DNA of 57,976 nt from Bacteroidota bacterium (GCA_020437385.1 JAGQWL010000143.1:1-57976); one strand, 5' to 3'; counted from the stretch's first letter, positions 32,654 through 45,983 are shown. Program-made: numbers and translations. The notes: generated by a model not told the origin, from the sequence alone.

Positions 32654-33424
32654 CTATCTGAGTACCGCTACGACGGGAGCGTGATCGGATGGCTTCTGCC
32701 CCTTTCGTTCGTCTCGATCAACATAAGCGTCATCGCACCGTTCAGCGATCGCCGCAGTGCCAAACACGTGGTCGATCCGCAACCCATCACCTTTGGGGAA
32801 CGCGAGGCGGCGATAGTCCCACCATGAAAACGGTCCGGGGCCGTCATGCAGCTCACGGACGAGGTCCACGAAACCCCAGTCGACGATGTGCTCCAGTTTC
32901 CGACGTCCTTTTGGATCGCACAGAACCGAGTCTCTCCAGCGATCCGGAAATGCGGCATCCCTGTCATCCGGCGCGATGTTAAAGTCACCGCAGAGAATCA
33001 GGTCGTCGTCGGGTGAGAATTGGCTTTCGATGAACGATCCGAGTCTATCGAACCAGGACATCTTATACTCCCAGCTTTCGGATCCGACAGACTTTCCGTT
33101 CGGGACATAGACCCCGACGACGCCGATCCCGGCCGTCGTGCAGGAGATTACACGCGCCTGCTCATCGTCAGCGTCATCATTCATGCCGCGTACAACCTCA
33201 CTGATCTCGTGCCGGCTGAGAACGGCAACGCCGTTCCATGTCGGTTGTCCGTGAACGGCCGAATGGTACCCAAGCTCACGGAGTTCGTCAGCCGGAAACA
33301 GCTCGTTCGTAACCTTGAGTTCCTGCAGGCAGACCACATCCGGCTCGAGCTTCTTGAGCCATTCGATCAGTCGCTCGTGCCGAGCCTTTACCGAGTTTAC
33401 ATTCCAGGTCGCAACAGTCAGCAT
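32654..33424 (-). CDS. xth: Exodeoxyribonuclease III
   Basis: It carries ATWNVNSVKARHERL, VVCLQELK, GDFNIAPDDRD and SDHAPV. I prefer the ATG at 33424 (MLTVATWNVN), whereas the track start is 33469. Confidence 0.93.
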   Translation of the reverse strand: MLTVATWNVNSVKARHERLIEWLKKLEPDVVCLQELKVTNELFPADELRELGYHSAVHGQPTWNGVAVLSRHEISEVVRGMNDDADDEQARVISCTTAGIGVVGVYVPNGKSVGSESWEYKMSWFDRLGSFIESQFSPDDDLILCGDFNIAPDDRDAAFPDRWRDSVLCDPKGRRKLEHIVDWGFVDLVRELHDGPGPFSWWDYRRLAFPKGDGLRIDHVFGTAAIAERCDDAYVDRDERKGQKPSDHAPVVAVLR

Positions 33425-33616
33425 GGACACTATCCCAAAATCAGTCGACAACGTGAGCGCTTCCGACACCTCTCATGTATTCTCGGCGTCGTCAGTTTTA
33501 CAAACTACGCCAATCGGCCCACAAACCTGCAAAGGGATCGGGGCTCTGCTGCGCACGACGCATTCGATTGTATCGTAACTTCAGTGCTCTCGTACACTCT
33601 GATCCCGCCGACCGTC

Positions 33617-35347
33617 ATGCCACTGATCCTGCTTCACGAAAAGGAGCGACAAGAGTGGCTGGCGTTTCGGGAACCGGCGGAGGTGCTGCAGACCTGGGAC
33701 CCCCTGCAGATCCCGTATCTATTGAGACAACTCGAAGAACGCTCACGCTACCACAATCGATGGGCGGTCGGATTTCTCGCGTATGAGGCATCGTCAGCCT
33801 TCGACGCTGCTCTGCGTACCCGGGACGCGTCCTCAGGCTCCTTTCCACTCGCATGGTTCGGTCTGTTCGACACGCCGGTCGTTTTGCCGGATCTTCCCTC
33901 GCGCGGCACGGACACATTCGCGTCGGGCGACTGGGTACACGAAATCGATCGTCCTGAGTTCGAGTCGGCCATCCGGCAGATACGTGAACATATCCGCAAC
34001 GGGGACACCTACCAGGTCAACTTCACGTTCAGGATGCGAAGTGCGTTCGCTGGAGATCCCCTTGGCTTCTTTCTTGATCTCCAGCGGCGTCAGCCCGGCG
34101 GCTACGGCGCGTACATCGAATGTGACACTTTTGCGATCGCGTCTGTTTCTCCGGAGCTTTTCTTTCGACGAGACGGTGAGCACATCACGACGCGCCCCAT
34201 GAAAGGGACACGACGCCGCGGACTCACCACGGCTAGCGACCGAGAATTGCGGGAGGCGCTTCGCACCTCGCACAAGGACCGCGCGGAAAATCTCATGATT
34301 GTCGACATGATGCGGAACGACCTGAACCGGATCGCGATCTCCGGCTCGGTTACCGTACCATCGCTTTTCGAAATTGAGAAGTACCCAACCGTCTGGCAGA
34401 TGACCTCGACCATCACGGCTCGAACAACGCGGTCCTGGGCAGAGATCCTCGGTGCCCTGTTTCCCTGTTCGTCGATCACGGGCGCTCCGAAGATTCGCAC
34501 GATGGAGATCATTGAATCCCTCGAACCGTCGCCGCGCGGGATCTACACGGGATCGATCGGATTTCTGGCTCCCGATGGTCGGTCTCAGATGAACGTTGCG
34601 ATCCGCACGGTCGCAATTGACAAGACAACCGGCACGGCGACGTACGGAGTGGGCGGCGGCATTGTCTGGGACTCACAGCCGGAAGCGGAATATGACGAGT
34701 GCCGTTCGAAGGCAGCCGTGCTTTCCGGCGGCACGGCCGCGGCGCCCGATCGTCTGCTGGAGACGATGAGCGTGCTGCCGGAGGAGGGTGTTGTCCTACT
34801 TGAGGCACACCTTGAGCGCCTATCGGATTCCGCAGAATATTTTGGTTTTGCCCTGGACATCGGGTCGATCCGATCGGCACTGCTTAAGCTGCGTTCGCGC
34901 GAAGCCCGCGTCCTTCGCCTCACTGTCGATCGCGATGGCAGGGTCGAGATGGCGGAATCGGATTTGCCGGAGTCCGGCAGGATTCGAGCAGCGGTTGCAC
35001 CAACTCCTGTTTGGTCGCGCGACCCTCTACTCTATCACAAAACAACGTCGCGGGATGTCTACGACCAGGCGCTCGCCTCACGCGATGACGTCGACGACGT
35101 GATTCTGAAGAACGAGCGAGGAGAGCTGACGGAATTCACTATCGGAAACCTCGTACTCGAGATCGACCGACGCCTCGTCACGCCTCCGGTATCCAGCGGA
35201 CTGCTTCCGGGTACGCTGCGGCAACAATTGCTTGACCGGGGTGAAGTGACGGAGCAACTCATCGGCGAGGATGACCTCGACAGCGCGACAACGATCTTTC
35301 GAATCAATTCGGTTCGAGGATGGCAGCGGGTCGACCTCGTGCCATAG
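33617..35347 (+). CDS. pabB: Fused aminodeoxychorismate synthase component I (PabB) and aminodeoxychorismate lyase-like class IV aminotransferase (PabC)
   Basis: The chorismate-binding domain carries RPMKGTRRRG, DRAENLMIVDMMRNDL, FPCSSITGAPK and GIYTGSIGF. A C-terminal fold-type IV segment follows, starting around LLETMSVLPEEGVVLLEAHLERL and running through ...YHKTTSR...ERGELTEFTIGNLV...GLLPGTLR. The start is set at ATG 33617, because the upstream part of track ORF 33020.. is antisense to xth. Confidence 0.88.
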   Translation: MPLILLHEKERQEWLAFREPAEVLQTWDPLQIPYLLRQLEERSRYHNRWAVGFLAYEASSAFDAALRTRDASSGSFPLAWFGLFDTPVVLPDLPSRGTDTFASGDWVHEIDRPEFESAIRQIREHIRNGDTYQVNFTFRMRSAFAGDPLGFFLDLQRRQPGGYGAYIECDTFAIASVSPELFFRRDGEHITTRPMKGTRRRGLTTASDRELREALRTSHKDRAENLMIVDMMRNDLNRIAISGSVTVPSLFEIEKYPTVWQMTSTITARTTRSWAEILGALFPCSSITGAPKIRTMEIIESLEPSPRGIYTGSIGFLAPDGRSQMNVAIRTVAIDKTTGTATYGVGGGIVWDSQPEAEYDECRSKAAVLSGGTAAAPDRLLETMSVLPEEGVVLLEAHLERLSDSAEYFGFALDIGSIRSALLKLRSREARVLRLTVDRDGRVEMAESDLPESGRIRAAVAPTPVWSRDPLLYHKTTSRDVYDQALASRDDVDDVILKNERGELTEFTIGNLVLEIDRRLVTPPVSSGLLPGTLRQQLLDRGEVTEQLIGEDDLDSATTIFRINSVRGWQRVDLVP

Positions 35348-37011: not shown

Positions 37012-37956
37012 TCAACCGCTTCCGATCGCTTGCAGTAGAAAGCGCGAGAGAAAGCGATCGGCCCAATGCCAGGTGTGCTCGGCATCCTCGTGAAAAATCG
37101 GTTGGTCGAAACCAAGCAGGCAACGCTTCTGACGCAGAAGCGCGGTCAGGAATCGAGCACGATCCCGGTTCCCTGCCGATCCATCAGAGGGCGCGGCAGC
37201 AATCCAGTACCGCGTTTTTCGTAAAGCAGCAAGTTGGTCTCCAACAGCGTCCCTGAAGAAATCGGTGGGATTCCATGCTGCGAGTGCCTTCGTGCTCCGC
37301 GGACGCCCGAATGCAGCGTCAAAGATTCCATTTTCAAGCCAGACCCGGTCGCCAAATGGTTTCGGCTGCGGCTGACGGCGGTCCACGTGATCCGGCCACA
37401 TGAACAGTCCGTCGTAGACCGCCGCGTGGTCCAGAAAACCAGGGCGCCGCGCGGCGAGCAGACTGACCGTGTAGCCGCCCAGAGAAAAGCCCGCCGCCAT
37501 TCGCAAACCGCCCCGAAGCATCGGATAATCGTCTACGACTCGCGGCAGTAGCTCGGAGTCGAGGAAATCCCAGAACCTTCCAGTTCCGATTCCGGGATAC
37601 TGCGCTGGATTGTCACCAACCATATTGACACCAAGCGAAGGAACGTGATTATTCGTGCTGTTTAGCCCGGGCAAAACAACGACGAGCGGTGGAAGTGACC
37701 CACGCGAGATCAGCAGGTCAATGTCCTCGATAGAGGTTCGCGTCCTCGATCCGTCTTCGTTCACGTTTACCCATTCACGTTCGTGCCCGCGGAACAGGAT
37801 CAGTAGCGAGGCTGTATCGATCGAACCGAGGTTCGGTGGTTCGTAGACGTAGTACGGTTTCCGAATGCCGAGCGCGGTGGACTTGAGCAGTCTGTATCTG
37901 AGGGATCCCCGAAGACTTTCCCGATGGCGTGAAATGATCTCTCTGTGCGAAGACAT
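37012..37956 (-). CDS. Alpha/beta hydrolase, esterase-D/'putative esterase' type (operon gene 5)
   Basis: It carries the nucleophile elbow AAGFSLGGYT, in a setting similar to the PF00756 family. The start is either the ATG at 37956 or the GTG at 37992, which is 2 nt after the upstream stop. Confidence 0.75.
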   Translation of the reverse strand: MSSHREIISRHRESLRGSLRYRLLKSTALGIRKPYYVYEPPNLGSIDTASLLILFRGHEREWVNVNEDGSRTRTSIEDIDLLISRGSLPPLVVVLPGLNSTNNHVPSLGVNMVGDNPAQYPGIGTGRFWDFLDSELLPRVVDDYPMLRGGLRMAAGFSLGGYTVSLLAARRPGFLDHAAVYDGLFMWPDHVDRRQPQPKPFGDRVWLENGIFDAAFGRPRSTKALAAWNPTDFFRDAVGDQLAALRKTRYWIAAAPSDGSAGNRDRARFLTALLRQKRCLLGFDQPIFHEDAEHTWHWADRFLSRFLLQAIGSG

Positions 37957-37994
37957 GTAAAAACTGGCTGCCGAAAGACCGCAGCACCACACGC

Positions 37995-38903
37995 TCAGGT
38001 AAGTTGTTCTTGCGGAATATCGCGAAGGGCGGACACCGCTTCGTGGAGGAAATTGGGCACTACCGCGGCGTAGGTTCTCGCAAGATACTGCGGATCAGCC
38101 AGACGACCGATGATGCGTCGGTATTTCGCAAGTCCGTGCGCTTCCACGATCTTTCGCAAACGGTCCGGTTGCTCGAAGTGTTTGAGCATACCTGCCGGGT
38201 CGGCTTCGGGGTGAAACTGGACGCCAACCAGTTCATCTGAGATCCTGATTCCCATGATCGCCCGTTCGAGCGGAACGTTGGGACGGTACTTCTCACGAGC
38301 AATTATTCGAGCACCAAGATCCTTCAAGTGGTGAGCGCTCTTCTTAACCACTTGCCACTCGCGGAAGTCCGCTGCGTAGAACGGATCGGACAATCCGGCA
38401 AACAACGGATCATGAAACCCGTGACTGGTCGGATGCACCGGGAAGACACCGAAAGAAGGCGACCGACGCTTTTCGACGTGAGCAACCTCGAAGTGGCGGA
38501 CCATCATCTGAAATGAGTGGCAGATGAACAGCACGTGTTTTGGCGAGTCGCCGTTCACCGATCGTGCCGTGTTGTGCCGCCAGATATCGTCAAGCCAACC
38601 GAAGTAGTTCTTCTCCCACTGACTTCCGTACCCTTCGAACGGGCTCCCGGGACCGCCGGAGGAGATATAGATGTCGAAGTTGTTATCGGGCACCTCCGCC
38701 CGACCGCGTACATCGAACCGACGCTTCTCAAACGGGATACCGCCGAATTTTCCACTGAAGCGATCGACGATCTGGTCGATTGCTGCAAGCCCAAGGTTCG
38801 CCTCCCCGTTGTACAGATCGAGAACCGCTACGCGAAGCGGCAGCACCCGCTGGGGATCGGCCAACGCAGCTTCGTCATGAGCCAGCATCTTACTATTCGA
38901 CAT
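37995..38903 (-). CDS. Stand-alone class-I glutamine amidotransferase-like protein (possible C26-type gamma-glutamyl amidase) (operon gene 4)
   Basis: It has the Cys nucleophile context VLFICHSFQMM and the His-Glu context VGVQFHPEADP, but no fused synthetase domain. I prefer the ATG at 38903 (MSNSKML), whereas the track start is 38948. Confidence 0.8.
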   Translation of the reverse strand: MSNSKMLAHDEAALADPQRVLPLRVAVLDLYNGEANLGLAAIDQIVDRFSGKFGGIPFEKRRFDVRGRAEVPDNNFDIYISSGGPGSPFEGYGSQWEKNYFGWLDDIWRHNTARSVNGDSPKHVLFICHSFQMMVRHFEVAHVEKRRSPSFGVFPVHPTSHGFHDPLFAGLSDPFYAADFREWQVVKKSAHHLKDLGARIIAREKYRPNVPLERAIMGIRISDELVGVQFHPEADPAGMLKHFEQPDRLRKIVEAHGLAKYRRIIGRLADPQYLARTYAAVVPNFLHEAVSALRDIPQEQLT

Positions 38904-39019
38904 GATCTTGAGACGACTTCCACAATAACCGGCACCGCTCGATCTCACGGGGCGGGTTGAGCGTCAACCATCTGGCGTGCAGCGGTGTTCCGGTGGTATC
39001 GACCGGAGTTCGATGAGCC

Positions 39020-40396
39020 TTATCGGCGCCCGCGCTTCCATGTGTGACGCAAAATAAACATGGGGAGCGTTCCTCCTCCGGCCGTTACGTTTGCAAGATT
39101 AGAGGCCGACGTCCGGGTCAGACACCCTCCCATCAGTGGACCATTTAGGTACGGATCGAGGTCGATGATGGTCGGCACGAGCTGCCAACCCGAGTCGGTC
39201 TTCATCATGAACGGTTCGCGATGAATATCAACGGTTTCCTGGACAACGCAGCGGTATGCCATCGACTGTTGAATCGCGTCATCCCACTCAGACTGGCTGG
39301 ATGCAAAACCGAGCGTGACCCCCTTTCCGCCGTACTCGTCGTTGGGCTTGATCACGAAATACTGCCGATTGGCGCGGACAAACTCAAGGAGGTTGATCCG
39401 AAGGCCGCGAAACATCGTCTGGCAATCACGCAACATTCGCGTCCACGGGATGTGACGGGCGATCGCCTCTCGCTGTTCGACGGGAAGCATGCTCGTGTAA
39501 CGCTCATCCGTCAGGAATTCGAAAACCGCTTTCTTATGCACGAGCTTCGTCCTGAACGTGTTAACATAACACGTCTTTCCAGAAATGTATCCCTCGAAGA
39601 ACGCGCCGCACTCGTCCTTCATCGCGTAATATTCGTTCAGCAACAGACGACGATAAAGAATATCAATTCGACGACCGTTCGCATGGATCCAGCCATCGAT
39701 ACATTCGAGCGAGCGTGGATCTACGACCTCGCACGGGTACCCCATGCGTTCGAAGTAGTCTTTGAGCAAATTAAACTCATGAATTGTCGGGACGTCGAGA
39801 TGATCAACGATTGCGATCGACGGCTTCTCGGCACGACCATCGAATTGTTCGTGATAGATCGATACGAGCGCCGTGAGGGTGTGCTCCATCGGTGACACGA
39901 AACGCACCGGGTGCTTCCGTTCGAACCTCGAGAACATCGGAAGCTCACGATAGATGCGGCCCAGCTCATGGATGTAGGCGATCCCCGCCGGGTTCTCGCC
40001 GTTGATCTCCACGAACTTGAACGAATCCGCCGTCAGGAACGAATCCATTCGCGACAAGGCAGACAGCCTGATAATGGGCGTCGGAATCGACGCGAGTTCG
40101 ATCTCCCAGTCTTCCAGACCGAGTCCGTCGCGCAGCACCTCGAGATCGTCAAAAAACTCTGCCGCAATCTTGAGAACCGCCTGCCGGATCAGGTAGACGG
40201 TATCCTGAACGGCGTTGTAACCTGCCTCCGTAATAAATGTCGGACGAAGGCTGGCCGCCATTGGGCGATCGCCAAAGAGAATCTTGCGTTCCCGCTGCAG
40301 GTGGACCAGGAGGTCCAGCTCCTGTTCCGCCGCTGAAAGGTCCGCCTCGATCAGCCGATGGTAGTCGCGTATTGCCGCGTCGAGTTGGGATCGCAT
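39020..40396 (-). CDS. ATP-grasp-type amidoligase-like protein (glutathionylspermidine-synthase-like or circularly permuted ATP-grasp, unverified) (operon gene 3)
   Basis: This 458-aa ORF has good coding statistics. The segments FKFVEINGENPAGIAYIHELG and YFVIKPNDEYGGKGVTLG and the C-terminal NVTAGGG resemble what I recall of the GSP-synthetase pre-ATP-grasp and CP_ATPgrasp families. The fold assignment needs an HMM or structure check. Confidence 0.55.
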   Translation of the reverse strand: MRSQLDAAIRDYHRLIEADLSAAEQELDLLVHLQRERKILFGDRPMAASLRPTFITEAGYNAVQDTVYLIRQAVLKIAAEFFDDLEVLRDGLGLEDWEIELASIPTPIIRLSALSRMDSFLTADSFKFVEINGENPAGIAYIHELGRIYRELPMFSRFERKHPVRFVSPMEHTLTALVSIYHEQFDGRAEKPSIAIVDHLDVPTIHEFNLLKDYFERMGYPCEVVDPRSLECIDGWIHANGRRIDILYRRLLLNEYYAMKDECGAFFEGYISGKTCYVNTFRTKLVHKKAVFEFLTDERYTSMLPVEQREAIARHIPWTRMLRDCQTMFRGLRINLLEFVRANRQYFVIKPNDEYGGKGVTLGFASSQSEWDDAIQQSMAYRCVVQETVDIHREPFMMKTDSGWQLVPTIIDLDPYLNGPLMGGCLTRTSASNLANVTAGGGTLPMFILRHTWKRGRR

Positions 40397-40408
40397 GATC
40401 GGGGTCCG

Positions 40409-41383
40409 CTAACTTCCCGAAGTAGCCGTTGCCGGCTCCAGAAGCCCGTTGGCGGTAAACTGACCGGCCGGCCGATGTTTCTTTGCCATCTTGACAAGAA
40501 ACTTGGCGACGGTCTTGATCACCCACTCATAGTTATCCAGTCCCACGCTGTGGTAATCCGCGTCTGGCGCCGGATTCATGAAGTCGATAGCGTACGGAAC
40601 GCCGTCCCGGACGGCGAACTCAACGGTATTGAGATCATATCCCAGTGCCTTACAGAGAGCCAGGACGTCGCGCTTCACCCGCTTCTTCATGGCGGGAGCG
40701 ATCGGGCTCGGATCCACCTCCTCGTATCGCGCGCGCGAGTCGGCACCACCCGGGTTGTAGCGCATGATGCGGACGTCGCTGCGTCCTACTCCGTAACACC
40801 GGAAGTAGTCCTCAAACTCAATGCCTTCCTGTAGCATCATGCAATCGGTCCCCGACGCATCGTACGCGGCAAAAAGCTCTTCGGGATTTCGGACTTTCGT
40901 CACGCCGCGCCATCCGCCACCGTCGTGCGGTTTCAAGAACGCCGGGAAGCCGACGTAGTCAAAGATGGAGTCCCAGTCGATTGGATACCGGAGGTTTCGG
41001 TAGGAGTCCGTGGACGTGTTCGGCATGTGGTCCTTGTTCGGCAGGATAACGGTTCGCGGTACGGCGACCCCGGCCGCTTCGGCAATCACATTGTCAATAA
41101 ACTTGTCATCCGCACTCCACCAGAACGGGTTGTTCACCACGTAGGTGCCCTTGAGCGAGGCCCACTTCAGGTACGATCGATAGAACGGAATCTCGTGCGA
41201 GATTCTATCCAGGATCACTGCGTATTGTGGCTGGCCGGTGTCCTGTACGGAATCGATAGTGACAAACTCCGCCTCGACGCCACGGGACGAGTAGTTCTCG
41301 TTGATGTGATGAATAAGGCCGTCCGGAAACGTTGTCTCCATTCCACGGAGGATACCGATTCGACTCACTGCTTTTGCTGCCAT
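40409..41383 (-). CDS. ATP-grasp domain ligase (RimK/glutathione-synthetase-like) (operon gene 2)
   Basis: Its layout is typical of ATP-grasp carboxylate-amine ligases (VPRTVILP..., FPAFLKPHDGGGWRGVTKV, MMLQEGIEFEDYFRCYGVG, TVEFAVRDGVPYAIDFMN). The ATG at 41383 (MAAKAVSRIGIL) lies 20 nt after the upstream stop. Confidence 0.75.
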   Translation of the reverse strand: MAAKAVSRIGILRGMETTFPDGLIHHINENYSSRGVEAEFVTIDSVQDTGQPQYAVILDRISHEIPFYRSYLKWASLKGTYVVNNPFWWSADDKFIDNVIAEAAGVAVPRTVILPNKDHMPNTSTDSYRNLRYPIDWDSIFDYVGFPAFLKPHDGGGWRGVTKVRNPEELFAAYDASGTDCMMLQEGIEFEDYFRCYGVGRSDVRIMRYNPGGADSRARYEEVDPSPIAPAMKKRVKRDVLALCKALGYDLNTVEFAVRDGVPYAIDFMNPAPDADYHSVGLDNYEWVIKTVAKFLVKMAKKHRPAGQFTANGLLEPATATSGS

Positions 41384-41403
41384 GGACGTACCGCTGCTTG
41401 AGT

Positions 41404-42117
41404 TCAGGAAATATGTTTCTGGATCAGTCCTCGCCACCAGGGCCAATCGTGCCCAAAAACGCCGGGCTCGATATCGAGCGAGTGGCTGATCCCCTTCGCC
41501 CGCAGCACCCAACTCATGTCCTCATTGGCCTGACGGCACGGATCGAACTCTCCTGCGGTCAAGATGATGTGATTGCGGCGGATGGCCTCAAGGGTTTCGT
41601 GATCCGAAAGATTGGGTAGAAAATCGACGGGGTTTGAGAAATAGACATCGTCGTTGTAAAAGCCGTCGAGTTGCGACTTGATGTCAAACTTCCCGCTCAA
41701 GGCCACCAGCTTTCCGAAGGCCCATGGATTCTTGAAGACGAGGTTGGCGGCGTGATAGGCACCGAAGCTCGCGCCGGTCGCGATGATGAAGTCATTTCCC
41801 GTTCGGTTCCGGATAAACGGTACAACTTCCGCAGTGACGTACTGCTCATACTGCTGATGTCGCTTTATCCGCACGTACGGATCGACGTCGGTATTGTACA
41901 GGCTTTCCGCGTCGACCGAATCGACGCATATCAACTGGTTGTGTCCCTCTGAAAGTTGATGCGAAAGCGCGCCGACCATTCCGAAGTCCTCCCACTCGAA
42001 GAACCGACCGAGGCTGGAGGGAAAGGCGAGCACGGGCGTTCCGGCATGGCCGAATACCAGTATGTCCATCTCGCGACCCAGGCTGGGACTGAACCACCTT
42101 ACGTGTTCACGATGCAT
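41404..42117 (-). CDS. Alpha/beta hydrolase, esterase-D/'putative esterase' type (operon gene 1)
   Basis: It carries MDILVFGHAGTPVLAFP and the nucleophile elbow IATGASFGAYHAANL. Confidence 0.75.
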   Translation of the reverse strand: MHREHVRWFSPSLGREMDILVFGHAGTPVLAFPSSLGRFFEWEDFGMVGALSHQLSEGHNQLICVDSVDAESLYNTDVDPYVRIKRHQQYEQYVTAEVVPFIRNRTGNDFIIATGASFGAYHAANLVFKNPWAFGKLVALSGKFDIKSQLDGFYNDDVYFSNPVDFLPNLSDHETLEAIRRNHIILTAGEFDPCRQANEDMSWVLRAKGISHSLDIEPGVFGHDWPWWRGLIQKHIS

Positions 42118-42244
42118 TGTATACCCGATATGGAACTGTGTCGCGAGTATTTACGAAAATCGCGGCACGCTTGGAAGGCAGGAAGGCAACGAATCGGCCG
42201 GAACGTTCAGGAAGACGATCGCGTTCGGAAAACACGTAGCGACC

Positions 42245-44150: not shown

Positions 44151-44210
44151 CTTTTGCCGAGTGGTCGATTCTTTTGCCGAGTGGCCGATTCTTTTGCCGA
44201 GTGGCAATTA
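44151..44210. repeat. Tandem 20-bp repeat, 3 units
   Basis: The units are cttttgccgagtggtcgatt / cttttgccgagtggccgatt / cttttgccgagtggcaatta. The array lies 57-116 nt upstream of the prmA start, and its last unit overlaps the stop codon of the 44208..45983 gene. Confidence 0.92.
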
Positions 44211-45983
44211 ATTCGTCAAACGAACCACGCGCATCCCGTAGTCTTGCTGAAAATCAGGCGCCGCTTCCCGGAAGTCGCCGTAGGCATGCGACTCGTCGGT
44301 TTCGAAGTGAATGGTGTAGCGCCCGGGCTCCAATTTGATAATGTCGTCGAACAGGCGATACCGTTCGTCGCCGCCAGCGGGCAACGTATTTGAACGAGTC
44401 ATCCGCCAGATCTCTTCTCCATCTGCGTCATTTCGGATCCAGCCATAGTCGTAGGCGCCAAACTGTGAGACCTCTCCGATCGCCCGAATGTGGAGCCTGA
44501 CCGCCTCATCAAACTCAACGGACGCCGAGTACGATTGTTCGTTTCCAGCCGGCACCATCGAGAAGATCTCCGGACCACTCACGTCGTGGGTCTCCTCTCT
44601 CGAGGCCATTGGTACAGTTTCGGCCAGGACCGTGACCGAATGGCCGACATCCTTCAGTACCGGAAACATCGTGATGCCCCACCGCTCAGGATGCTCGGGA
44701 GCCCGTCGAAGCCAACTATCCCACGCGTGACTGTCGTCTGACTGATAGTGGAGAACGTACTTGCCAGGTTCGAGGCGAACGACTCCTTCACCAATACTGT
44801 TGTCCGAGCTGCCACCGGCGTGCTGCACCTTGCCTGCACTCATCTTCCACACGAGCTCGCCCGTGTCAAGATTTTCCAGCCAGCCATAGTCGTACTCCTG
44901 ATCTCCGTGCACCTCACCCATGGCATAAAGCAAGACGTCAACTGTCTCGTTCACTTCGAAGGCCTGTTCCATTCGCGCGTCGTTGCCGGCAGGAGCGAGC
45001 TCAATAATGGGGGTGCGTTCCTCCCAGACATCAAACGGATGCACCCTGTCCGCCGTTCGGCGATCCGCGGCATACAGCGTCAGGCCCCACGCGGCGGGAT
45101 CATAGGGTGGGTTGCCAAACCAACGACCATAAGCATGACCGCCGTCCGTCGAATAGGACACACGGTAGAGACCCGGCTTGAGTTCGATGCTTCCGTCAAA
45201 AACGAAGTTCGACTTTGAGCCACCGGCGGGGCGCGAGTTGTCGCGGGTCATGGTCCAGATGACGCGGTCCTGTGACAGGCTCTCGACCGTACCGCGATCG
45301 CCACAATCCGAGTCGTCACAGATTTCGCCGACCGAATAGATCGAAACGCGTGCCTCCTCATCGACCGACAGTACCTGTTCAGCCGTCCGATCGTCGCGCA
45401 TGGTACCGGATGTCCAGATGACATTCGGCATCGCTTCGGGTCCGTACGAATCGAGGGTTCCCTTCAGGGATTCCAGCTCGCCATTCTCGGCTTTCAGGGC
45501 AACCTGCCAGTGTTTGCGATCCGCGGTCCAGTGGTCCGTCAACCGGACACCGAAAAATCGGTGCGAGCTGGACGAACCCCGAGACGAACCGAACGAAGCA
45601 AAATAGAGATCGTAGTCACCGGGCTGCAGTTGGACGGATTCCTCCGTGCGCAGAAGGGTTCCGTCCTCAATCTCGGAATGCGACGGATCCATTCGCCACA
45701 CGAGGGAGCGGTCGCTGCGCCGAACGATCCACGGATACGCGGCCATGACCGCGTCGGCAGACCGGTTCGCATCCTTGGATTCGAGCGAACCAAGCGCAGT
45801 AATATTGACACGCGTTGGTTCTTCGATGCGGAAGGCCTGGTGCTCCAGGTCGCCGCGACCGATCTCGCTCAGTGTGACCTCACCGTCAAGTGCCGGGAGA
45901 CCCCGGAAAACCCGAAATATCACAAGGGTCGCGAGGCACGCGAGCAAAATCAGCTCAATGCGAACGATTGTTCTTTTGTCCAT
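44208..45983 (-). CDS. Membrane-anchored hypothetical protein composed of four ~135-aa internal repeats (family not recognised)
   Basis: It has an N-terminal TM helix (IVRIELILLACLATLVIF). Four modules share the pattern F.V.E...V.I.A.GE...DYGW.....GE.VW.M......AGG.......I.L.PG.Y.(V/L)HY.SD.SHA......P.....WG(I/L)T. Examples are YDYGWLENLDTGELVWKM...VRLEPGKYVLHYQSDDSHAWDSW and YDYGWIRNDADGEEIWRM...IKLEPGRYTIHFETDESHAYGDF. Confidence 0.85.
   Translation of the reverse strand: MDKRTIVRIELILLACLATLVIFRVFRGLPALDGEVTLSEIGRGDLEHQAFRIEEPTRVNITALGSLESKDANRSADAVMAAYPWIVRRSDRSLVWRMDPSHSEIEDGTLLRTEESVQLQPGDYDLYFASFGSSRGSSSSHRFFGVRLTDHWTADRKHWQVALKAENGELESLKGTLDSYGPEAMPNVIWTSGTMRDDRTAEQVLSVDEEARVSIYSVGEICDDSDCGDRGTVESLSQDRVIWTMTRDNSRPAGGSKSNFVFDGSIELKPGLYRVSYSTDGGHAYGRWFGNPPYDPAAWGLTLYAADRRTADRVHPFDVWEERTPIIELAPAGNDARMEQAFEVNETVDVLLYAMGEVHGDQEYDYGWLENLDTGELVWKMSAGKVQHAGGSSDNSIGEGVVRLEPGKYVLHYQSDDSHAWDSWLRRAPEHPERWGITMFPVLKDVGHSVTVLAETVPMASREETHDVSGPEIFSMVPAGNEQSYSASVEFDEAVRLHIRAIGEVSQFGAYDYGWIRNDADGEEIWRMTRSNTLPAGGDERYRLFDDIIKLEPGRYTIHFETDESHAYGDFREAAPDFQQDYGMRVVRLTN

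Follow-up and report, generated by a model that had tools for sequence, protein, structure and literature searches.

A five-gene block around two adjacent ATP-grasp ligases in a Bacteroidota bacterium: a candidate module for the synthesis of a small peptide-like compound

What does a bacterium make with two amide ligases and three hydrolase-type proteins whose genes lie side by side? The question is raised by a 57,976-nucleotide stretch of DNA from a Bacteroidota bacterium (GCA_020437385.1, JAGQWL010000143.1:1-57976; the whole stretch is called the window below), in which our open reading frame (ORF) calls gave five co-directional minus-strand ORFs at 37012-42117, where a preliminary description of the same DNA had also placed them. 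In the order of the genes, the products are an alpha/beta serine hydrolase (esterase A), a classical ATP-grasp ligase, a predicted circularly permuted ATP-grasp ligase, a stand-alone protein of the class-I glutamine amidotransferase (GATase) fold, and a second alpha/beta serine hydrolase (esterase B). The reading that we favour, with modest confidence, is that the block is a cytoplasmic, ribosome-independent amide-bond module of the PF14403 kind, in which two successive ligations would give a small peptide-like compound and the hydrolases would trim or recycle it.

The permuted ligase is a protein of 458 residues (39020..40396, minus strand) belonging to the PF14403/PF04174 superfamily and having a topology like that of the eukaryotic glutathione synthetases. 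Its AlphaFold2 model had a predicted local distance difference test (pLDDT) value of 90 and a predicted template modelling (TM) score of 0.88, and showed the ligase fold that had been suspected from the sequence. In Foldseek searches, the top full-length matches of this model were the human, yeast and plant glutathione or homoglutathione synthetases (2hgs, 1m0w and 3kal; E 5e-17 to 1e-15, TM 0.63-0.68), which have the same permuted topology; their identity to the 458-residue protein was, however, 11-16%, and there was no sequence-family match. In glutathione synthetases, an amino acid is coupled to the carboxylate of a peptide by way of an acyl-phosphate. Further structural matches were the permuted ATP-grasp protein 3n6x, which was also the PDB match by sequence (1.7e-5), Cp1B (9cjn), YgiC/YjfC, and the synthetase domains of GspS and TryS.

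An invariant VEINGE motif (129-134, with E-x-N at 130-132) lies N-terminal to an invariant KPNDEYGGKGV loop (350-360). That is, the order of the motifs is reversed relative to the classical order in the 324-residue ligase of the same block. Against PF14403 (CP_ATPgrasp_2), the window protein scored 24.2 bits, below the cut-off of 32, while 56 of the 60 orthologues matched the family at E<=0.01 (best 9e-13) and two relatives, L054 (53.6 bits) and L059 (35.2 bits), passed the cut-off. Because the reversed motif order, the fold matches and the matches to PF14403 and PF04174 agree, the analysis confirms, at the level of the structural model, that the protein is a circularly permuted ATP-grasp ligase, as had been proposed. 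A profile-profile comparison of the two ligases by hhalign gave a probability of 4% and did not display the permutation. The permuted ligase also has many invariant Arg and Lys residues, a hint that its substrate may be acidic.

What the characterised members of this fold class do bears on what the block would make. Glutathionylspermidine and trypanothione synthetases join a peptide carboxylate to a polyamine. Together with YgiC and YjfC they gave strong Foldseek matches (2io8, 2vob, 7uk8 and 7uk6), and some database sources label orthologues of the permuted ligase 'glutathionylspermidine synthase'. The 458-residue protein differs from GspS in that it has no N-terminal CHAP amidase domain, and the GspS-normalised TM-score was about 0.41; PF03738 was matched, weakly, by one of the 60 orthologues, and there is no extra N-terminal domain. 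According to PMC12568646 and its reference 48, E. coli YgiC and YjfC are peptide-spermidine ligases, and the characterised structural relatives in general form amide bonds in which the carboxylate comes from a small acid or a peptide and the amine from an amino acid or a polyamine. Cp1B, from fungal E-64 biosynthesis, is an ATP-grasp ligase that joins trans-epoxysuccinate to an amino acid, and in series with a second amide-forming enzyme Cp1B combines an acid, an amino acid and an amine into a pseudo-tripeptide (PMC12568646). It is a structural neighbour of the 458-residue protein (E 1.1e-15, TM 0.61), but the identity is 14%, and Cp1B is a fungal secondary-metabolite enzyme whose partner is an amide bond synthetase of the ANL family and whose cluster adds an oxygenase and a decarboxylase.

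A Bacillus mycoides plasmid (NZ_CP036068.1, 156867-162333) carries a distant relative (L087, 22% identity) of the permuted ligase, in a cluster with an AMP-binding enzyme, a second protein of similar size and a MATE efflux pump; this cluster looks like the ligase/amide-synthetase logic of E-64-like natural products. We considered whether the block system is associated with plasmids and rejected this, the relatives found on plasmids being only 22-30% identical; the Bacillus cluster, with its AMP-binding enzyme, two glutathione-synthetase-like ligases and efflux pump, is a different system.

The other ligase (40409..41383, minus strand) is a classical, that is, non-permuted, ATP-grasp amide ligase resembling RimK, Ddl and LysX. 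Its length is 324 residues when counted from the ATG; the database gene call starts five codons later and gives 319. The AlphaFold2 model (pLDDT 87.3) is a three-domain ATP-grasp structure, and Foldseek matched it to Ddl 3r5x (E 3.5e-14), RimK 5zk6 (TM 0.66/0.72), ArgX/LysX and VanA, with E values around 1e-13 for Ddl, RimK and LysX, so that the earlier assignment as a RimK-like ATP-grasp protein is upheld by fold. It shares both fold and motif order with RimK, LysX, ArgX and Ddl, but its best NCBIfam match, rimK_fam (TIGR00768), reached 27.3 bits, far under the cut-off of 143.4. No Pfam family covers its orthologue group, and the window protein gives weak ATP-grasp matches. K151, G155-G157, E186, E255, D267 and N270 are invariant in 52 orthologues, and the Lys, the Gly-rich loop and the Mg ligands follow one another in the canonical ATP-grasp order. 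Over both ligases, 52-60 orthologues keep the nucleotide- and Mg-binding motifs without change. Among cultured organisms, Rhodocaloribacter litoris carries the gene for this ligase.

The resemblance to RimK and LysX raises the possibility that the block modifies a protein. According to this explanation, residues would be attached by the RimK/LysX-like ligase to the C-terminus or a side chain of a target protein, then lengthened or capped by the permuted ligase and taken off again by the hydrolases, giving a reversible tag. The best TM-scores of the 324-residue ligase were indeed to S6-bound RimK and to LysX/ArgX, enzymes that work on the carrier protein LysW, and peptide tagging was reportedly proposed by Iyer et al. 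in 2009 for some permuted ATP-grasp systems. The C-terminal tail of the ligase (window 40409-40480) also deserves attention in this respect. Its pLDDT is below 50, a QFTANGxLEP motif is kept in it in all orthologues, and several of the orthologues P0145, P0152, P0160, P0164, P0178, P0180 and P0188 have 100-200 additional Lys/Ala/Pro-rich, histone-H1-like residues of low complexity; it could be an interaction or polyanion-binding tail. In a search for Rosetta-stone fusions, the longer ATP-grasp homologues (401-514 residues) carried such Lys/Ala/Pro tails and no domains of the other cluster proteins. Tagging of a protein seems improbable to us, however: no small carrier or target gene is conserved in or beside the block, where RimK and LysX have an S6- or LysW-type partner, the flanking genes vary between genomes, and the characterised structural relatives of the permuted ligase act on small molecules.

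In order to see which of the five genes belong together, we used an alignment of the permuted ligase to search GTDB, with a single genome for each species. More than 580 relatives were obtained, and the best 80 loci, each of 20 kb, were analysed by tblastn with the window proteins and by clustering of the neighbouring ORFs. Loci in which the permuted ligase was at least 55% identical are called close (n=33) and those of about 40% identity distant (n=48); the counts below take only the loci with enough flanking sequence. The close loci came from Rhodothermales, Salinibacteraceae, Balneolia, metagenome-assembled genomes (MAGs) assigned to Chitinophagales, and one Thermoanaerobaculaceae MAG. The identity of the ligases was 65-80% within Rhodothermales and 40-50% to Acidobacteriota, and the ligase family as a whole forms 359 clusters at 50% identity (E<=1e-30). 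The closest homologues of the block proteins are from Rhodothermales MAGs, and we take the host itself to belong to Rhodothermales.

The two ligase genes were adjacent in all 28 close loci and in 25 of 39 distant ones. Esterase A lay upstream of them in 24/27 close loci and was nearby in 17/37 distant loci. The GATase was found in 23 of the 31 close loci and in one of the 46 distant loci, and esterase B in 12 of 30 close loci, only alongside the GATase; esterase B is an add-on specific to the group of Fibrobacterota, Chlorobiota and Bacteroidota (FCB). All five genes in the order of the window occurred in 10/25 close loci. The preliminary description had read the five genes as one operon. The order does recur across species, but the conserved unit is the two ligases, usually with esterase A, and the GATase and esterase B are add-ons.

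The distant loci have other companions. A homologue of GCS2 was present in 28 of 46 distant loci and in one of 31 close loci; this neighbour is a carboxylate-amine ligase of the YbdK family (PF04107, E 1e-63; NF010039, 530 bits). In a proteobacterial MAG and two Obscuribacterales MAGs, the order is esterase A, ATP-grasp ligase, permuted ligase, GCS2. In many Acidobacteriota it is GCS2, ATP-grasp ligase, permuted ligase, M29 peptidase, esterase A on the opposite strand, a second PF00756 esterase and a third ATP-grasp ligase. GCS2, M29 and a third ATP-grasp ligase have no homologue anywhere in the 58-kb window. The GATase and esterase B of Rhodothermales and Balneolia fill the positions that the YbdK-type ligase and the M29 peptidase hold in other phyla.

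In one subgroup, Chloracidobacterium and Pyrinomonadaceae, the permuted ligase stands without the ATP-grasp ligase and beside a gene for an EVE-domain protein. Nine loci from these taxa and other Acidobacteriota MAGs were without the partner (L040, L041, L043, L046, L059, L060, L063, L064 and L070). In L059, the permuted ligase is preceded by a 196-residue protein without a Pfam match and by the EVE-domain protein (PF01878, E 1e-47), and the clustering of neighbouring ORFs suggests that the other partnerless loci may have the same two neighbours.

The five genes might also be neighbours by chance, or share transcription and no function. The surroundings are a run of co-directional housekeeping genes (prmA, ppx, mrp and nifU), and no terminator-like site was predicted between the block and mrp. 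The synteny contradicts such an origin: at least 10 species-level genomes have the same order, the core is found in different phyla, and the flanking genes prmA, ppx and mrp do not travel with the block. Since the order is repeated in Rhodothermales, Balneolia and Chitinophagales-assigned MAGs, and the three-gene core in other phyla, the arrangement is not one of chance, and we regard this explanation as extremely improbable.

The gene directly after the permuted ligase encodes the GATase-fold protein (37995..38948, minus strand). The maximal ORF has 317 residues and about 300 is likely, an ATG at 38903 or 38888 fitting the alignment of orthologues better. It matched PF00117 with 25.2 bits (cut-off 22.8). 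All of 17 orthologues share Cys129 in ICHS, His232 and Glu234 in QFHPE, and the GGPGSP motif, so the Cys/His/Glu triad noted before is a conserved one; after QFHPE follows a conserved extension of about 70 residues. The further suggestion that the protein is a gamma-glutamyl amidase of peptidase family C26 received no specific support, all 17 orthologues matching PF00117 and none of them PF07722 (Peptidase C26) at E<=0.01. Solved relatives were not found by single sequence; by profile, only the uncharacterised 3l7n was found (E 0.003). Like PuuD and other C26 hydrolases and like CarA, the window protein has the triad on a class-I GATase fold and is encoded beside a ligase; it differs from them in the missing PF07722 match and in the extra conserved C-terminal segment.

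These properties bring up another function for the GATase, namely that of a glutaminase subunit of the adjacent permuted ligase, in which ammonia from glutamine would turn the phosphorylated carboxylate into a carboxamide, in parallel with CarA/CarB and MurT/GatD. The partnership of an ATP-grasp enzyme with a class-I GATase is established in carbamoyl-phosphate synthetase. In our loci, the GATase gene was directly downstream of the permuted ligase in 23 of 23 occurrences. The preference for PF00117 over PF07722, best NCBIfam matches that are 'glutamine amidotransferase' models, and the invariance of the triad and of GGPGSP, which binds glutamine, all agree with amidation, and the C-terminal extension could be a docking element. 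On the other hand, 8/31 close relatives and nearly all distant ones keep the ligases without the GATase, the equivalent positions in other phyla are held by a ligase or by peptidases, and stand-alone hydrolases such as PuuD and gamma-glutamyl hydrolase keep the same triad. We hold this amidating role of the GATase to be rather unlikely. Because the GATase is missing in a quarter of the close relatives and in nearly all distant ones, its distribution shows that it would be accessory under either reading, as a hydrolase or as an ammonia donor.

The remaining two proteins are probably cytoplasmic alpha/beta serine hydrolases of PF00756. Esterase A (41404..42117, minus strand; 237 residues) is encoded by the first gene of the block, and its ATG start was confirmed by aligning 20 orthologous starts. 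Esterase B (37012..37992, minus strand; 314-326 residues) is encoded by the last; 326 residues is the maximal ORF, and there is an alternative ATG at 37956. In the Pfam search both exceeded the gathering score of 22 bits, esterase A with 29.1 and esterase B with 31.6. In esterase A, none of 15 orthologues from several phyla departs from Ser117 (GASFG) or His223 (GHDWP); in esterase B, Ser158 (GFSxGG) is invariant and His294 nearly so in 13 orthologues. That is, the nucleophile elbow and the catalytic His are conserved in both, and the Ser-His pair was placed and the acid residue was not. The PDB matches of esterase B by sequence were the feruloyl esterase 6rzn (1.5e-6) and the IroE-like hydrolase 3gff (3.9e-5). 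The gene for esterase A is also carried by the cultured Longimonas halophila.

The motifs GASFG, GFSLGG, ICHSF and QFHPE of the preliminary description were all found, and its intact serine nucleophiles are conserved in the orthologues of both hydrolases. Its name for them, esterases, is borne out as far as PF00756 and the intact GxSxG elbows go, but not as an identity. Since several orthologues of esterase A, and one paralogue, also match Peptidase_S9, a peptidase role is as likely as an esterase role, and esterases A and B may work as peptidases.

One Rhodothermales chromosome (L019; OZ244956.1, 12403-20488) has no esterase A upstream of the ligases. Directly downstream of its ligase-GATase genes sits a glycogen-type cluster (4-alpha-glucanotransferase, alpha-amylase-family protein, esterase, GlgA-like synthase), and the esterase in it is a paralogue 41% identical to esterase A and closer to the Acidobacteriota esterase A group (43-49% identity).

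How does the block compare with systems that are already known? The preliminary description had called it undescribed, which is too strong. A ligase pair with an alpha/beta hydrolase is a gene neighbourhood of the PF14403 type, which was reportedly predicted by Iyer, Abhiman, Burroughs and Aravind (Mol Biosyst 2009). The Pfam entry of PF14403, following that paper, reportedly describes, around the Roseiflexus prototype RoseRS_2616, neighbourhoods with a GCS2-like ligase, a peptidase of the alpha/beta-hydrolase fold, a GAT-II-like amidohydrolase and an M20 peptidase, and predicts that they make small peptides. The window shares with this description a permuted ligase beside another amide ligase and an alpha/beta-hydrolase-fold gene, and the relatives in Acidobacteriota, Obscuribacterales and the proteobacterial MAG have the GCS2 ligase and a metallopeptidase, again as in the description. 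In contrast, the window is without the GCS2 ligase, the GAT-II-like amidohydrolase and the M20 peptidase, and has a class-I GATase and a second PF00756 hydrolase instead. The block is a lineage-specific version of an amidoligase system that was predicted computationally, and is not wholly undescribed. The accompanying statement that no characterised pathway exists has stood: full-text literature searches for PF14403, permuted ATP-grasp proteins, related ligases and the taxa gave no experimental work on any member.

We return to the proposed function, a module for two successive ligations. Each ligase, the RimK/Ddl-like one and the glutathione-synthetase-like permuted one, would convert a carboxylate into an acyl-phosphate, which would then be coupled to an amine. 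Working in succession, the two would give a small compound of a peptide-like or amine-capped kind, in which acidic or gamma-glutamyl groups would most plausibly be abundant. The two Ser-His hydrolases, possibly peptidases, and the Cys-His-Glu enzyme of the GATase fold may trim, edit or recycle this compound or its precursors. The sequential action, the small molecule rather than a protein as substrate, and the roles of the hydrolases are what we infer from several observations. The confident models of both ligases match amide ligases best (glutathione synthetase, GspS, YgiC/YjfC, Cp1B, RimK, Ddl and LysX). The two ligase genes are co-directional, adjacent and 12 nucleotides apart in the window. 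The distant versions, with YbdK ligase, M29 peptidase, second PF00756 esterase and third ATP-grasp ligase, follow a logic of several ligases plus peptidases. By eye, which was how the five N-termini were judged in place of a predictor, there is no apparent signal peptide, and no gene for a transporter, a carrier protein or a precursor peptide lies within the block.

Several points weigh on the other side. Neither ligase falls within a characterised sequence family (27 against 143 bits for the RimK model, 24 against 32 for PF14403), and the literature gave no substrate or product for any member. A RimK/LysX-like fold, as modelled here, would equally fit the C-terminus of a protein as substrate, and the GATase could be a synthase subunit and not a hydrolase. 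The operon itself is a probable one, deduced from spacing and synteny. In addition, the GATase is missing in 8 of 31 close relatives and esterase B in 18 of 30, and the hydrolases are therefore not essential to the core chemistry.

The number of hydrolases in the block, which exceeds that of the ligases, could be understood in still another way, as a catabolic or salvage route. An imported amine or peptide would be ligated, for example gamma-glutamylated as in the Puu pathway, then processed, and finally released by the GATase-fold enzyme and the hydrolases. Pairs of a ligase and a GATase-fold hydrolase of gamma-glutamyl amides serve the utilisation of putrescine, aniline and isopropylamine, and amine utilisation is said to be among the predictions of Iyer et al. 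However, the known catabolic pathways through gamma-glutamylation use ligases like glutamine synthetase and not ATP-grasp ligases, the block has no conserved association with an oxidase, dehydrogenase, aminotransferase or transporter, and distant versions have up to four ligases, which points to assembly. We give such a route little credence.

Within the reading that the block assembles a small compound, a wider proposal can be made, which we regard as a speculative possibility: the block and its GCS2-containing cognates in Acidobacteriota and Melainabacteria would make and recycle a widely distributed cytoplasmic metabolite that has so far gone unrecognised. Candidates would be a gamma-glutamyl or peptide-amine conjugate comparable to glutathione or glutathionylspermidine or, in the GATase-bearing Rhodothermales and Balneolia, a carboxamide-capped solute. 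If this were true, a compound of primary metabolism would have been overlooked owing to the rarity of biochemical work on its carriers.

The ligase pair is strongly conserved and set among housekeeping genes, not in a typical secondary-metabolite island, and this combination suggests that the compound is physiologically important. The lineages that carry the pair are abundant in saline, thermal and soil habitats. To our knowledge, seventeen years have passed since the computational prediction without a substrate being assigned to any member. The block would not surprise a specialist in comparative genomics, but it is a clean and testable minimal system. Its nested architecture defines the minimal set for reconstitution, starting from the core of two ligases, to which esterase A, the GATase and esterase B are added in turn. 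As the work on Cp1B shows (PMC12568646), new stand-alone amide ligases attract interest as biocatalysts as well.

We finally describe the layout of the block and its surroundings. The gaps between the genes are, in gene order, 20, 12, 71-131 and 2-38 nucleotides, the ranges reflecting the choice of start codons, and agree with the sizes given earlier, where the third had been put at 71-116. The block is separated by 127 nucleotides from ppx/gppA and by 96 nucleotides from mrp/apbC. Its GC (guanine plus cytosine) content, 0.56-0.58, equals that of the whole window and matches the housekeeping region around the block, and for this reason we rejected a recent horizontal transfer. We also looked in the block for a carrier protein or the precursor of a ribosomally synthesised and post-translationally modified peptide, and the intergenic gaps are too short to hold one. 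The sole small ORF (42 residues, 42107-42235) was rejected as a precursor or carrier, as it sits in the non-conserved leader.

The upstream intergenic region (42118..42244, minus strand; 127 nucleotides) is the presumed promoter region. The single sigma-70-like consensus match there, at 42144-42116 on the minus strand, has a -10 hexamer, TACAAT, that overlaps the ATG of esterase A; promoters of the Bacteroidota type were not modelled. Because the host belongs to the group with such promoters, this is more likely a chance match, and the transcript would otherwise begin inside esterase A. Neither at the gathering threshold nor at E<=1 did Rfam show a riboswitch or leader RNA in the region, and no motif was common to this leader and 20-21 orthologous leaders.

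The rest of the window is ordinary chromosomal housekeeping, with SecA, a RecN-like protein, PrmA, Ppx, Mrp, NifU, a PabB-PabC fusion and tRNA-Gln. In the fusion (33020-35347, plus strand), a chorismate-binding, PabB-like domain is joined to a class-IV aminotransferase, PabC-like domain; its mechanical start overlaps an exonuclease III-like gene on the opposite strand (32654-33469), and the true start is probably further downstream. Another ORF (44208-45983, minus strand; 591 residues), without a Pfam match, has a hydrophobic N-terminus and, by eye, at least three internal repeats of about 130 residues, each ending like L-x-P-G-x-Y...D-x-SHA-Y/W...W-G.

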